64,000 nucleotides of DNA from Amoebophrya sp. A120 (GCA_905178155.1 CAJINV010000002.1:2760226-2824225); one strand, 5' to 3'. Positions 6,001-58,328 are shown, counted from the stretch's first letter. The notes: generated by a model not told the origin, from the letters alone. Program-made: numbers and translations.

Positions 6001-9000
6001 TTTCCAGCATGCGGATTTGCATTTCTATGGGCGGGTGGGGACGTTTTTACATGGGATATGACACACCAATCATTTCACACGACAGTGCAGCTGTGGCTGG
6101 TGATATGATCTCTAGAAGTTCTCCAACTTCTCCGGAAATCGACCCTGTGACCGGTAGATTGTTGAAAACGAACATCCACTTGTCGTCTCTGTCCTCCCCC
6201 GGAAGCAGCTTTATTAATGATGCAGTAGGTCACGACAGCTCGATCGAAAATATCGAGCAGTCGGTGAAAATATGAACTGCAAAAGTATCGTATTCGTATA
6301 AATATGCATTTACAAATTTCTTCAGCATGAGAAATAAAATTTGTAATGCGGATTTATCTATAAGAAAAAGATTGGTAATGCATGACTGCAATTTATTTTA
6401 CTACGAACGAGTACGATACTTTTGCACAGGATAGACAAAACAGGCCAGCAAACTTCACGAGTTGGAAGAGCAATCTGAATATGGATTCGTAAAAATGTCT
6501 GGGTCTGGAAGGTTGGAACTTGTAATGCTAGCTTTCCATACCTAGAAAATCTGTATTGCATAACCAACAAAAGTCGCAGCCTCTTTTGTCATGCAAAAAC
6601 GCAGTTTCTCACGCGGATTGCCTATGAGAAAGCGTTTCGGGAAGTTGTCATGCCGGACTGCATTCGGAAGTGTTTCCATCATGCACATTTTCGCATCACA
6701 GGTTGCCAGACCCAGACACTTTTACATTTGATACCGAATTGTTGCGACGGGACGCGGCGAAAAAAGCCTTTGATTTGTTTGACCAAACGGACGTGTTTGA
6801 GCAAACGGATTTCTTTGACCAATCCTTGCCAACGATCAATTCCGAGGCTGCGCTGCTAGAGCTGGACGACGACGATGAATCGGTTCTGGACTATGACGAG
6901 GAAACGGGGGTTTGCTTTTCCCCCAACACGACCTATCAACTGTAAAAATGTCTGGGTCTGGAAGAATGCAACTTGTGATGCTGCATTTGGATTCCCAAAA
7001 AAATCTGTATTGCATGAGTACCAAAGGGAGTGCAATTTTTGCTACGCTGAGAAGGCACTTGTCATGCGGAATATGCATTAAGAAGCCCTCAAAAAATCTG
7101 TATTCCTAGGGTATGCAACACAGACATCATGGCTCATGCAAAACGTGCATGACAAGTGTCAGAATCTTCCAGACCCAGACACTTTTACATTTGATACGAC
7201 CGCTTTGGGGACAATGGGGCTGGCTGTTACAGTTGACCAGGATGCTCGCGCTGGCACGTTGGACGACCATGGGACAAGTTTGACTTTGCTGCCCGGGTAT
7301 CAAATGTAAAAATGTCTGGGTCTGGAAGATTGCCAGATTTGTCATGCAGTTTTTTCATGATCCAGGAAGCCCGGAATGCAGGACCTAGCATGACAGATTC
7401 TGTGCGATCTCTCTCATGCCTATCCTGCATGAGAAACTGCCTCTCGATTAGGTCAAAAGTGTACAACTTTTGGCAAGCATGCAACACAGTTTTTTGCCTG
7501 CTCCGGATTTAGCATGACAAGTTGCATTCTTCCAGACCCAGACATTTTTGCATTTGATACCGGGGCGGCGGTCGCGATTGTCTCCCCGAGTAACGAGGGA
7601 TCGAGCGCTATCCAAGAAAAAAACTGTGTAAGTGTAACTTTGTGTTGCAGACGATGCAAGACAGTCACAACTGTCATGCTGGACATGCAACAGAGGCACT
7701 TTTCGTACGTGTTTTCACGTACTAGCTACGCATGACAGGTTTTCTCTGTCATGCAGGGCAGACTTGTGATGCTGTTCCTCCAAGAAAGTTACACTTACAC
7801 AGTTTTTTTCCTGCATAAGCGCTATCGCAGGAAGGAAAAAACTGTCTTTGCTTCTCAAACCCTTGCAATCGCTGCACTTTTACGATGACACGCAAAAAAA
7901 TTTGTGATGCGTCACATGATGCTGCGAGAGAAATGAACAGGCATGAAGCGCCGGCCTTTTCCTGCATGATGTCCTCGAGCATGACAAAAGACTGTCTCAA
8001 CAAGGACGTTCCGCATTTATAATACAAGTTGAGACTGAGACACGAGTTTTTCTTTTTTCTCACGATAAGCCCGACGGATGCGAACACTTCGAGTACGACG
8101 ACCGCGGAATATCAAATGTAGAAATGTCTGGGTCTGGAAGAATGCATGTTTGTCATGCTTGTCTGGCATGACTCTTAAATCTGTCATACACGTTACCCAA
8201 GAGCCGCATTTTTCTGTCATGCGGAGACGCAGTTTGTCATGCAGAATAGGCAACACCTACAAGCTCAGAAATTTGTCATGCAGAGCCAGCACTTGTGGCC
8301 CCCTCATGCTACGCCACTCAGCATCACAAGTTTCCAGACATCCAGACATTTTTGCAGTTCATACGGAAGGCGCTGGGTCAAAATCTTCTTCCAATAACAG
8401 TAATGAACAAGCAATTCTACTGGGCCGCAATCCCTCGTCTTCCAATTCTCCGCAGCCTTATGAAATGCAAAAGCATCGTACTAGTATAAATCGCATGAAA
8501 AATTTCCTCAGCATGAGAAAGAACATTTGTAATGCGGATTTAACCTGAGAAAGAAACTTGTAATGCATGAATGCGATTAGTACGAGTACGATACTTTTGC
8601 ACAGAATAAGCCTTCGCCAAACACCATGACGAGTTCCAATTTTAACCCGTTCGAGCAAATATCAGGTGCAAAAGTATCCTACTCGTCGTATAAATGCATT
8701 ACAAATTATTTCCTAAGCATGAGAAATGAAATTTGCAATGCGGATTTACCTTCAAGAGAAAGATTTGTAATGCATGACTGCAATCACTACGAGTGCGATA
8801 CTTTTGCACAGGATAGCAAAGTCAGCAGAGCTCGGGGATGACGGTGGGGACAGCATTAGCGTTTGAAAATGAGGTATCGCGAGAAAAGATTGTTTCACGG
8901 TGAACTTGTGATGCATAGAATGAATGGAGCACAGAGCTACTTAGTCGTCTTGCTACACCTGCAAGAGGACTACACCGGAGCTCTATAGCATGTTTTCCGT

Positions 9001-55700: not shown

Positions 55701-58328
55701 TCAGAAGGTGAGCATGATGCAGCTCTATCAAGTAAAGACCTTGTCGAGCACAAAATCGCGGAAGATCGCGCCTACGGAGCGGAAGATGAGGAGAGGAGAA
55801 CATCGGTGCAACTATGAAATTCAAAAATGTCTGGGTCTGGAAACTTGTGATGGTAAAATGTGCATGATGAAAACACTTCCGAATGCAGTCCGGCATGACA
55901 ACTTCCCAAAACGCTTTCTCATAGGCAATCCCTAATATGAGAAACTGCGTTCTTTTTGATTGACAAAAGAGGCTGCGACTTTTGTTGGTTATGCAATACA
56001 GATTTTCTAGGTATGGAAAGCTAGCATTACAAGTTCCAACCTTGTTCCAGACCCAGAGATTTTTGCATTTGATAGTAACTAGGGTTAGACGATCTGAAAG
56101 CGAGAGAAACGGCGGTGGCGTTTAAGTTCACGGAAGGGAACGAAGTTGTGGAGGATGAAGTTTTCGGTGAGGGCGAAAATAATAACACCGCAATAAACAA
56201 GGAGCAACAGCCCTTACTCGACCTGGAAAGCGGCGAGAGAGCCGCACCAGACACCAGCATGAGAAACCGATCCAAATCCGTGAAGATCGTCCCGGAGCAT
56301 TTGACCCGACGGGGGACGACCTATGAACTGCAAAAGTATCGTACTAGTAGTAATTGCAATACAAATTAGCTCAGCATGACAAATGGAATTTGTCATGCTG
56401 TTTTGCCTTGGGATGGAGATTTGTAATGCATAACCGCGATTACTACGAGTACGATACTTTTGCACTGCATACGACCACCGGAGAGGCAATTTCGAAGTAC
56501 CAGAACGGGAATGTATCGGTGATTCCCACGAAACCAGTGCTCGACACGAGACACGCGGTTTACGATGTGGAATTTAAAGTGACGAAGGACTGCAAGGCAT
56601 TATTGGGGACGACTTTGGAAGAATCCGCGCTGTATCGGATGAAAGACGTGGAGATTTATTTACACGTCGCCGCCGGGACAAAAAAGCCGGCGTTCGCAAC
56701 GCGGGCGGAAGAGGTATACTAGATTTTTTTGAGAAAAATTTCCCTTATTTGCGGATGGTCGGTGTAGGTCTACTGGATAATGAATTACTTATGTCCTTCT
56801 CATATGTATCGTCCCGTAGCTGTGTGATTATGTGCTGGCACATTTTTCTTGCAGCTTCTCCGTGGCGCGGCGGTTCTTGCAACGCAAAGTCCAATATGAT
56901 TTTTTATCAAAAAAAAATCCTCAACCACCAATCAAAAATCCCAGCTTCCCGAAATGGGCGCCCTGTCCGTTTATTACGAAGAAGATGGAACAACGGCCGC
57001 GCCCGTTGCACCAGCGGCATCCTCAACGCCAGCAAAGCCCGCATCCTCCTCATCATCGAAAGCCAGAAATAACGACGATAATTCCCCCCTTTTGATGAAG
57101 GACCCGTCTGAAATTTTCCTTCAGCCCAACTGCGTGTTAGGTATCCGCGCCCAGGCGTCGACCATCGGGAAGTTGCAGAGACAGTTCCTGGGATTAACCC
57201 CCAACGCGGACTACTACGAGTTGTTAGGAAGATCGAGGAAAACGAGACAGATGTACGAGATGGTCTTATCCGAGAAATATTTGAAAAAACTCTCCACGAA
57301 AAAATTCTTTCTGGAACACGACGCGGTGATTCTCGGCGTCGACGAGGTGAACGGGTTTGTGTTAGTAGAAGGCTTCCAGGTCTTCGGGCAGCTCGCGCAG
57401 AAGGGGGGCCGGTTCCCCGAGGTAAAAATGGTGTCTGCGGTGATCGGTTCTAGCCCACCGAGGGCAGTGTCAACTTTTGACACGATCCGCGGTTTTGTCG
57501 CGTTCATCGGGTTTTTGATCGTCATTGGGATTACCGCGATACCGGAACTGAAAATCGGAAATTTCAAGCTGGACGACCAGTTCGCGACACTGATCATCGG
57601 GTTGGGAGTGGTAGTGATATCATGCATTTTACAAATCTTTATTTCCGCATTGATGCATCAATAAAAGAACTTCATTTCGATTTCTAAAGCTCGTCCGGAG
57701 ATTTTTTGTCAAAACTTTATTTTTGCTCCGGATTATTATATGGGCAAGGGCATGAAAATGAAATAAGTACAAACCCTTAAATTAAACTTTACCACAGCTC
57801 CTCGTCGCCCTCCGTTGCATCACCTGGAAGCAGGCGATCGGGTCCATGAACGCCGGCGTGTTACTCCTCTTCGCCTTTGCGGACGCGCTACAAGTGATCA
57901 TGGCCAACAGCAAAACGAGTGAATTCCTCGCGCAGATGATCGATAAAGTCACGGCTGGGAACAAAGCGCTGATCGTCTTTTTCACGGGGATTGTCGTGTC
58001 CGTTTTGACCCAATTCCTCAACAACGCGACCTGCACGCAAATGCTGTGGGACAGCACCTTAAACCTCTGCTACCGATCCGGAATCCCGTTTAAACCAATG
58101 ATTTGCCTCCTGGCGCAAACCTCCGGCTTCGCGTTCTGCACGCCAATCGGGATGCCGCCGACATTATTGGTGAAAGTCCCGGGAAACTACGAGTTTGGGG
58201 ACTATCTGCGCGCCGGGTGGTTGACGCAGGTCGTGGCGACGTTTTTGACGTGTCTGCTGGTGTCCGTGTGGGTTGCTTATGACACCGGGGACGTGGAGGA
58301 AAATGTGAAATTCTTGTTCTCCTGGTAA
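52795..58328 (+). CDS. SLC13/DASS (CitMHS-like) sodium:sulfate/carboxylate transporter; 6 IR elements and 4 GT-AG introns
   Basis: Multiple TM helices; LGGNLTLIGSTP, FLNNAT, TPIGMPPTLLVKVPGNYEFGDYLRAG. Introns 53618-53807, 55263-55483, 56714-56944, 57611-57797. Confidence 0.82.
52833..53153. mobile_element. IR introner family J
   Basis: DR GCAAA/GCAAA. Confidence 0.88.
53228..53446. mobile_element. IR introner family E
   Basis: DR CAGGA/CAGGA. Confidence 0.92.
54117..54268. mobile_element. IR introner family B
   Basis: DR AGTTT/AGTTT. Confidence 0.9.
54328..54592. mobile_element. IR introner family A
   Basis: DR TTCCA/TTCCG. Confidence 0.88.
55813..56074. mobile_element. IR introner family A
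   Basis: DR GCAAC/GTAAC. Confidence 0.87.
56322..56471. mobile_element. IR introner family B
   Basis: DR CGACC/CGACC. Confidence 0.9.

Follow-up and report, generated by a model that had tools for sequence, protein, structure and literature searches.

How can an intron-like element be removed from transcripts in whichever orientation it lies? The question is raised by a 64,000-nucleotide stretch of the Amoebophrya sp. A120 genome (the window). In it, an initial annotation paired closely related copies in opposite orientations within genes that all lie on the + strand, and argued from the polarity of spliceosomal introns that the signals must be symmetric termini or a stem joining the two ends. 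The six copies that it named are listed here with family, orientation (A or B) and the evidence of removal.

6480..6733, family 2, orientation B; mismatch at position 2 of the duplication; removed, 1018-nt exon sum and deposited protein P0121
55813..56074, family 2, orientation A; removed, direct joint 55809>56077, 267 nt (element plus 5)
3512..3773, family 1, orientation B; removed, 1089-nt exon sum in X1 and X4, and P0121
7298..7559, family 1, orientation A, in the same gene as 3512; removed, 1018-nt sum in an X4 contig that also skips 3512, and P0121
2176..2384, family 5, orientation A; removed, 1089-nt exon sum and P0121
9561..9769, family 5, orientation B, in the same gene as 2176; removed, 1018-nt exon sum and P0121

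All six sets of coordinates are exact: each copy starts with TAT and ends with ATA, with a direct repeat of 5 bp on either side that is perfect at 3512, 7298, 2176 and 9561 and has one mismatch at 6480 and 55813. As had been proposed, the members of each pair are related as reverse complements; aligned in that way they are 86-89% identical. Global alignments gave 234/264 as reverse complements vs. 172/297 on the same strand for 6480/55813, 225/262 vs. 178/287 for 3512/7298, and 183/210 vs. 144/229 for 2176/9561. With 30 nt trimmed off each end, the interiors matched only as reverse complements (scores of 314/-107, 234/-95 and 181/-48 for the three pairs in that order), and the opposite orientation is therefore genuine rather than produced by the inverted ends.

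Fifty-five elements of 145-331 bp were curated in the window, with TAT-N7-AAA inverted ends and a 5-bp flanking duplication that is perfect in 40 and carries a single mismatch in 15. A strict scan for ends plus duplication gave 61 matches in the window vs. 1-5 per shuffle in 10 shuffles. End positions 1-3 are T, A and T in 53-55 of the 55 at each end, a count to which selection by the search contributes, and A occupies positions 11-14 in 46-54. Kept outside the set were copies within the 17421-27008 duplication, a truncated copy at 17118, a cut-off element ending at 152 and a degenerate element at 61404. Relaxed-scan candidates 10562, 20453 (a duplicate of 10562), 29568, 30935 and 50906 were dropped with scores of 39 or less; contigs cross the starts of 10562 and 50906 unbroken. 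Clustering of 54 elements (10160 was left out) produced eight multi-copy families with no inconsistent pair, seven of which contain both orientations (per-family ratios of 10:2, 5:6, 3:1, 2:2, 2:2, 1:2, 3:0 and 1:1). The 10:2 bias of family 0 has an uncorrected p of 0.039 and is not significant over the eight families. A search of Rfam returned 0 matches. Short length, terminal inverted repeats, target duplication and dispersed copies, traits of MITEs, are all present, and the elements are miniature DNA-transposon-like introns of the Amoebophrya A120 introner type. Their anatomy suggests that a DNA transposase spread them by way of their inverted ends, and the mixed orientation of copies would follow from insertion on double-stranded DNA. 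The published description of A120 reports no putative transposase (PMC7789003), and a later paper assigned some A120 introners to TIR transposons.

The genes in the window are as follows; open reading frames (ORFs) are given with each element plus 5 nt removed and, in brackets, with the elements left in.

153..10521, +, host gene 1, its 5′ part beyond the window; 24 elements (641, 911, 1465, 1782, 2176, 2571, 3228, 3512, 3967, 4744, 5773, 6271, 6480, 6934, 7298, 7609, 7823, 8110, 8459, 8660, 8875, 9247, 9561, 10160) and one GT-AG intron, 2912-3110; 1503 aa (338)
12495..29008, +, host gene 2, with Cys/His-rich repeats, split by an assembly gap and the duplication; elements 13647-13908 (in the transcribed leader), 15055-15275, 15415-15677, 16796-17071, 27009-27287
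32373..34652, +, PLRG1/Prp46-like WD40 gene; GT-AG introns only
35400..37600, + (strand taken from the upstream ORF only), incompletely modelled gene; elements 36820-37084, 37146-37453
38371..42310, +, host gene 4, putative 2OG-Fe(II) oxygenase-like product from its motif; elements 38570, 39272, 40003, 40302, 40624, 41176, 41534, 41996; 572 aa (213)
43490..45720, +, host gene 5; element 44522-44678 (family 0, orientation B); 688 aa (354)
47102..51085, +, host gene 6; elements 47198, 48185, 48445, 48745, 49533, 50447, 50707; 923 aa (326)
52795..58328, +, host gene 7, putative membrane-protein-like; elements 52833, 53228, 54117, 54328, 55813, 56322 and four GT-AG introns; 1101 aa (518)
60037..62732, +, host gene 8; elements 60311-60574, 60613-60762 and the degenerate 61404-61808; open frame of 620 codons after removal

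The placement of all host genes on the + strand is thus correct for every gene modelled, removal of element plus 5 nt giving long + ORFs; elements 36820 and 37146 lie outside any complete gene model. The PLRG1/Prp46-like protein has its best match in Amoebophrya sp. A120 (99% identical; the next named match, A25, is 80% identical), and window exons are 100% identical to a second protein of Amoebophrya sp. A120.

Removal was examined in contigs of two runs, X1 and X4, which come from one study; their RNA status is guessed, and splicing efficiency, strand and lariats cannot be read from them. All 39 of the elements tested, which lie in host genes 1, 2, 6 and 7, out of the 55 curated, are missing from these likely-RNA contigs: 15 by direct joints, each removing element plus 5 nt, and 24 by exon-length sums (1089, 1018 and 608 nt), each exact to the base. 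Between 48000 and 56700, 12/12 elements are skipped, each as element plus 5 nt, by contigs that also skip two GT-AG introns, and three further direct joints lie elsewhere. Three cases are used below.

48745..48889, family 0, orientation B (the rarer one in that family); joint 48742>48893 in X1 and X4
54328..54592, family 1 element, orientation B; joint 54321>54592 in X4
7609..8067, tandem elements 7609-7817 and 7823-8067 with one 5-bp duplication between them; both removed by the 1018-nt sum

Single contigs lack elements of both orientations; one skips 48745 together with the orientation-A copies 48185, 48445, 49533 and 50707. Both orientations are removed in five of the seven two-way families, and the other two are covered in one orientation only. 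Deposited protein P0121, a model that may share the contigs' source, equals the spliced model over 1448 residues across 23 elements. In the DNA-like run X5, an unbroken contig (9721-13671) passes through element 10160 and other contigs read from exons into elements; the X5 joint table is dominated by repeat artefacts, and only its piece table was used. Among the joints between 48000 and 56700, one (48773>54144; depth 7.6, side 25) was discarded as arising from repeats. In the raw RNA run X9, 115 reads matched the window, nearly all at element ends, and they bear on neither splicing nor strand.

These data show that the elements are missing from likely-RNA contigs in either orientation, and that of the 5-bp duplication exactly one copy stays behind. 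The proposal that the same element works either way is upheld for each of the six copies named: a direct joint shows it for 55813, and exact exon-length sums and the deposited protein for the other five (6480, 3512, 7298, 2176 and 9561). Neither of the outcomes set against it, removal of one orientation only or separate cryptic canonical sites for each, was found: both orientations are skipped, and a GT/GC-AG reading is available, at any cut position, in 3 of the 55 elements and 1 of the 15 direct joints.

Where a duplication is imperfect, the base kept at the joint tells where the cut falls. The 48745 joint keeps the left copy at position 3, placing the cut at or after position 3, and the 54328 joint keeps the right copy at position 5, placing it at or before position 4. 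Together the 15 direct joints permit only position 3 or 4, which is where the cut lies, and the kept bases follow one register across all informative joints. At 55813 it is the left copy whose position 2 appears in the contig; an in-frame stop would result from the right copy. The second tandem element (7823-8067) has a position-4 mismatch that encodes Ala if the cut is at 4 or later and Pro if before; the deposited protein has Ala, and P0121 agrees with the spliced model only for a cut at position 4 or 5. The contigs, taken with this single deposited protein and a table of dinucleotides from the literature, lead us to infer a cut at position 4, so that the intron would be 1 nt plus element plus 4 nt. 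The choice of position 4 draws on two observations, the 54328 contig joint and a single residue, at the tandem element, of a transcript-derived model, with a single register assumed for all copies; position 3 is excluded by the deposited protein model only. In the published work, the introner border is called variable or unknown, and in its Table S4 all nine of the commonest A120 non-canonical classes begin with N-T, a table that aligners preferring GT, CT or AT starts may bias (PMC7789003).

Given a cut at position 4, the N-TAT start resembles the host's canonical donors, of which 9/11 are GTAT. The T at +2 is not independent evidence of a donor, since a T start was built into the element search. 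At the 3′ side, position 4 yields 15 different dinucleotides, AG in 2/55 (5/55 at position 3), and the duplication shows no required base. No branch motif common to all families was found near the 3′ end of the 55 elements. The motif GCATNACA was rejected as a polar branch point, being equally common on both strands (75 vs. 79); among spliced copies carrying it on one strand only, it is sense in 2176 and antisense in 8875 and 9561. Compared at 16 positions, the 5′ and 3′ copies of the repeat showed no significant asymmetry; use as a donor might have left one.

Folding predicts a terminal stem (first 15 pairs averaging a probability above 0.5) in 51/55 elements, and the folding z is below -2 in 54/55. 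Stem strength shows no excess in sense over antisense (Wilcoxon p of 0.10 for energy and 0.67 for pairing), and the excess of G-U over A-C is not significant (59:42, p 0.11); with the stem equal on the antisense strand and G-U not significantly in excess, there is no sign of selection for RNA pairing beyond the DNA repeat. Positions 4-7 are predicted to pair in only 35-62% of copies, and 48445 is skipped although its predicted fold lacks an end-to-end stem. The stem is a possible splicing signal on these models. The initial annotation stands in placing the signals in symmetric termini: the interiors are asymmetric and both orientations are removed, so the signal must sit in the inverted ends. 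Its use of polarity against ordinary spliceosomal handling finds no support as worded: an inverted repeat presents identical 5′ and 3′ ends either way, the cut is itself polar (1 nt ahead of the element, 4 nt beyond it), and two-way introners with GT/GC/GA-AG sites have been published.

The skips themselves might be artefacts. Reverse transcriptase can switch templates between short direct repeats across a hairpin, and a hairpin with a 5-bp direct repeat is a substrate for this; alternatively, contigs of guessed RNA status might derive from DNA without the insertions, the raw X9 reads having fallen on element ends and not on unique exons. We regard both as very improbable, because the long ORFs require removal and element plus 5 is not a multiple of three in 33/55, and because the contigs lacking the elements also skip GT-AG introns and show zero depth across intergenic bins, in contrast to X5, where the elements are present. 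Template switching or insertion-free DNA would also have to account for the single register of kept bases and the stop avoided at 55813, and template switching for the skipping of a copy with no predicted end-to-end stem. Cryptic GT/GC-AG sites peculiar to each orientation have a precedent in Polarella glacialis and Aureococcus anophagefferens, where two-way introner-like elements are transposon-like, duplicate their target and create introns in either orientation (bioRxiv 10.1101/2020.10.14.339549; Aureococcus via that paper). There GT/GC/GA and AG sites are built from end plus duplication, so that the target must supply a site, whereas here neither end dinucleotide is needed and GT/GC/GA-AG sites are not what is found. 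Since such a reading fits only the three elements that can be read as GT/GC-AG, is impossible in 52/55, and fails at 14/15 direct joints when all 15 remove exactly element plus 5, canonical cryptic sites are excluded for practical purposes.

A structure-guided route like that of Euglena nonconventional introns, in which a non-spliceosomal or heavily altered machine cuts 1 nt before and 4 nt after the stem and the TAT/GTAT likeness is incidental, has to be taken seriously, though we think it less likely than not. The Euglena introns are likewise non-GT-AG, with paired ends (predicted here), direct repeats at the border, a suspected MITE origin and a paired motif whose offset is short on the 5′ side and longer on the 3′ side; a paired-triplet rule at fixed offsets has been tested there, and they leave circles (PMC12501133, PMC11282704). 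The predicted stems, the missing 3′ dinucleotide and common branch motif, the removal of back-to-back elements with no intervening exon and the failure to detect U1 in A120 (PMC7789003) would all suit such a route. Against it, the stem is no stronger on the sense strand and G-U is not significantly in excess, positions 4-7 often lack pairing, 48445 is skipped without a predicted end-to-end stem, and the register places TAT on +2 to +4 of a host donor. Euglena introns also differ in having CDG/CHG at +4, 5-6 nt after the motif and a purine exon start, whereas here TAT lies at +2 with 4 nt after ATA; their N3-CDG / CHG-N5-6 signature is absent, replaced by TAT/ATA ends at 1- and 4-nt offsets (PMC12501133, PMC11282704).

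On balance we lean towards recognition by the host spliceosome, which would meet one donor-like N-TAT start and one 3′ end, both supplied by the inverted ends, whichever way the element lies. The terminal TAT would occupy +2 to +4, matching host GTAT donors; a spliceosome no longer reading +1 G or 3′ AG could accept it as a donor, the 3′ cut would be measured 4 nt past the paired ends, and the A-run of the repeat would supply a U-tract at the 3′ side. A120 has a near-complete spliceosomal protein set alongside its lack of a detected U1, and more than 60% of its introns lack GT-AG (PMC7789003). Somewhat short of even confidence, we suggest a U1-less mode using neither terminal dinucleotides nor interior signals, in which the N-TAT end might set the 5′ cut and a 4-nt ruler past the paired end the 3′ cut. 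A precedent for the mechanism proposed is Fritillaria borealis, whose introns take their sites from transposon inverted repeats and use a modified U2-type spliceosome; they differ in that most are AG-AC/AG-AT, the penultimate base is A in 88% of the unambiguous ones and U1 is present, whereas no 3′ dinucleotide is conserved here (10.1101/2025.08.15.670264, PMC13326754).

The elements themselves have already been published as A120 introners, and two-way introners with ordinary splice sites are known from Polarella. The A120 introners were described with TAT + 7 nt + AAA ends, short direct repeats (5 bp in the legend to Fig. S19), a mean length of about 240 nt, a hairpin, non-canonical sites and co-oriented genes (Farhat et al. 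2021, PMC7789003). Every one of their defining traits is found here: host name, ends, a 3-5 nt border repeat, repetition, removal and sites other than GT-AG. Compared with that account, removal is now seen for both orientations, and the cut can be placed at position 3 or 4, probably at 4. The mentions of "orientation" there (4 in the main text and 2 in the supplement, among the matches listed) concern genes, and a pipeline described in PMC9860276 admitted opposite-orientation matches. In the text passages covered by a literature search, no statement of orientation independence for Amoebophrya elements was found.

The authors of PMC7789003 could not place the border of the A120 introners. Indifference to orientation restricts the signal to the inverted ends, and where there had seemed to be "no splice signal", a cut placed one base ahead of TAT gives a definite donor-like motif. 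If the N-TAT reading is true, it tells how far from GT-AG a spliceosome can move, and it offers the simplest way known of gaining introns harmlessly and in either orientation. If the U1-less N-TAT mode is also true, any insertion, in any orientation and at any 5-bp target, even back to back, would become a scarless intron, and the element would be freed from purifying selection in exons, which would explain its takeover of the genome.

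The six stretches that the initial annotation had paired as inverted copies have exact borders, start with TAT, end with ATA and are flanked on both sides by 5-bp direct repeats. As claimed, they align as reverse complements, with identical columns of 234/264 (6480-6733 vs. 55813-56074), 225/262 (3512-3773 vs. 7298-7559) and 183/210 (2176-2384 vs. 9561-9769), compared with 172/297, 178/287 and 144/229 on the same strand. The match persisted when the ends were trimmed off; each copy therefore has an asymmetric interior and an unambiguous orientation. A strict scan that required both inverted ends and a duplication gave 61 matches in the window vs. 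1-5 in 10 shuffles. Removal of assembly-duplication copies and addition of five copies missed by the scan produced a curated set of 55 elements (145-331 bp), with a perfect 5-bp duplication in 40 and one mismatch in 15. The duplicated stretch (7530-17320 = 17421-27211; 9.8 kb at 99.99%, separated by a 100-N gap at which an element is broken) is probably an assembly duplication caused by repeats. A degenerate, longer element (61404-61808, 405 bp) has a decayed duplication (2/5 match).

Eight multi-copy families accommodated 43 of the 54 elements compared, with orientation ratios of 10:2, 5:6, 3:1, 2:2, 2:2, 1:2, 3:0 and 1:1 and no inconsistent pairs. The 10:2 ratio (p = 0.039, uncorrected) belongs to family 0 (12 copies, 145-163 bp), in which the two ends of most copies differ (TATG vs. 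TATC), TATG usually being 5′.

Removal was read from contigs of two runs guessed to be RNA (X1 and X4, among four such runs from one study), which carry no measure of splicing efficiency. Across 48000-56700, X4 skipped all 12 elements and X1 also 7, each as the element plus 5 nt; the contigs skip two GT-AG introns as well, and intergenic bins are empty. The minority-orientation family 0 copy at 48745 was skipped in a contig that also skips four majority-orientation copies. The piece table for 1-17320 contains three further direct joins (4744, 10160 and 13647), and within-contig distances of 1089, 1018 and 608 nt match the predicted exon sums exactly; they span 9, 13 and 2 elements and, in the same order, 1, 0 and 2 GT-AG introns. 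Since a single X4 contig spans host gene 1 (153..10521, + strand) and contains neither copy of the 3512/7298 pair nor of the 2176/9561 pair, both orientations are missing whatever the strand of the contig. In X5, a DNA-like run, elements are present in place. The deposited protein P0121, a transcript-derived model that may not be independent of the contigs, is identical to the spliced gene 1 model over an uninterrupted 1448 residues that cross 23 elements. All 39 elements tested, out of 55, were removed, and removal in both orientations, as opposed to one only, is supported in 5 of 7 two-way families.

The element at 13647-13908 is part of a transcribed leader that is long and AT-rich (the contig starts at 12495), and it is removed as exactly as copies in coding exons. 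At 7604-8072, two different elements stand back to back with one shared 5-bp duplication; both are removed, by recursive splicing or as one unit, and any single cut register leaves zero exon between them. The element at 10160-10346 is skipped in X1 and X4, yet P0121 diverges at this point and terminates after another 27 residues; by eye this fits read-through into the element, through either an intron missed in annotation or partial retention. The left end of family 1 (about 90 nt), with unrelated flanks on both sides, is abundant in X1, X4 and a raw RNA run (X9). This sequence, in reads from elsewhere, overlies 3548-3598 and 7298-7331. Possibly it represents a copy with only one end that is retained in an RNA from another part of the genome, as would be expected if removal requires both ends.

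All 55 elements lie inside gene spans, as drawn in this analysis. Taking out each element plus 5 nt yields + strand ORFs of 1503 aa in gene 1 (338 aa unspliced) and of 572, 688, 923 and 1101 aa (213, 354, 326 and 518 aa with elements kept), figures that exclude the gene carrying elements 36820 and 37146, whose model is incomplete. The same operation, with 61404-61808 included, opens a 620-codon frame in the gene at 60037..62732. Two proteins attributed to Amoebophrya sp. A120 matched exons here, one a WD40 exon at 99% (A25 at 80%) and the other a gene 1 exon at 100%. The ~15.5 kb of intergenic DNA holds no curated elements, though insertions there should be harmless; this suggests that insertion is directed to DNA that is transcribed or richer in GC. 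Two further genes are:

32373-34652, + strand, PLRG1/Prp46-like spliceosomal gene with GT-AG introns only
11170-11412, + strand, short ORF (about 80 codons, no introns) with X4 contig coverage

The product of the latter may be a Yos1/IER3IP1-type membrane protein. The former agrees with the finding of PMC7789003 that non-canonical introns are fewer in conserved genes.

The possibility that each orientation uses cryptic canonical sites of its own is excluded, because GT/GC-AG can be read at some duplication position in only 3/55 elements and 1/15 direct joints. Where the duplication copies differ, the base kept in the contig locates the cut. The left base is kept at position 1 (10160), position 2 (48445 and 55813) and position 3 (48745), and the right base at position 5 (54328); combined, the 15 direct joints place the cut after position 3 or 4 only. 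At 7823, the sole element with a position-4 mismatch, P0121 has the residue that the left base specifies. With a single register for all copies, the cut would fall after position 4, and the intron would consist of one base, the element and four bases. Such introns would start N-TAT, and GTAT occurs in 9 of the 11 canonical donors in the window (5 contig-supported, 6 resting on ORFs). At the 3′ end the dinucleotide varies freely, with 15 forms, AG occurring in 2/55. In Table S4 of PMC7789003, the nine commonest A120 non-canonical classes all start N-T, and the nine commonest of A25, with repeats starting TTA, all start TT; aligner preference may contribute to these classes.

Interiors flip with orientation, so only the inverted ends are constant, and the proposal that splice signals reside in symmetric ends stands. 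The ends pair in 96-100% of copies at positions 1-3, whereas the share drops to 35-62% at 4-7 and is 73-93% at 8-24. Folding predicted a terminal stem for 51/55 sense and 45/55 antisense strands, with no significant difference between strands. Neither the excess of G-U over A-C in paired ends (59:42, p = 0.11) nor 5′/3′ asymmetry at any end position was significant. The stem exists in prediction, and the data fit a role in splicing and one in transposition alike; 48445 is skipped, yet its predicted fold lacks an end-to-end stem.

Elements carry the interior motif GCATNACA at about 40-fold enrichment and in balance between strands: the counts by strand are 75 and 79 in elements (12.7 kb), 3 and 0 in exons (19.6 kb), and 0 and 0 in intergenic DNA (15.5 kb). 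GCATNACA/TGTNATGC is common to otherwise unrelated families, often spaced about 39 or 84 nt in family 1, and looser forms occur in some GT-AG introns (33566, 33962, 53618 and 55263), which may be decayed elements. A branch-point function for GCATNACA is less likely, as some spliced copies lack it on the sense strand; a transposase-binding repeat appears the likelier interpretation.

We lean towards removal by a divergent major spliceosome, which would take the element end as donor, reading it from +2 on, and place the 3′ cut a set distance past the paired end. The initial annotation had set orientation independence against spliceosomal polarity; this contrast fails, because an inverted repeat presents polar RNA both ways round. 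Non-spliceosomal, stem-guided removal, as proposed for Euglena (PMC12501133, PMC11282704), is a serious but less probable alternative. The cut register, a near-complete spliceosome without detected U1 and a precedent in Fritillaria favor the spliceosomal route. PMC7789003 describes the A120 spliceosome as near-complete with U1 not detected, and the Fritillaria literature (bioRxiv 10.1101/2025.08.15.670264, PMC13326754) supplies the precedent and has the U6 ACAGAGA box recognizing donor +4. That the skips are template-switch or DNA artefacts is very improbable.

The elements are those that Farhat et al. 2021 (PMC7789003) described as introners of A120, with the same ends, duplication, length and host; that paper calls the introner border unknown. 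The system is thus known, and the earlier observation is confirmed. Two-way intron creation has been published for Polarella and Aureococcus, with ordinary splice sites (bioRxiv 10.1101/2020.10.14.339549). For Amoebophrya elements, no statement on orientation was found in the text passages of the literature that were read. Two modest additions are made here, orientation independence on likely-RNA contigs and a candidate cut register; together they make the splicing mechanism testable.
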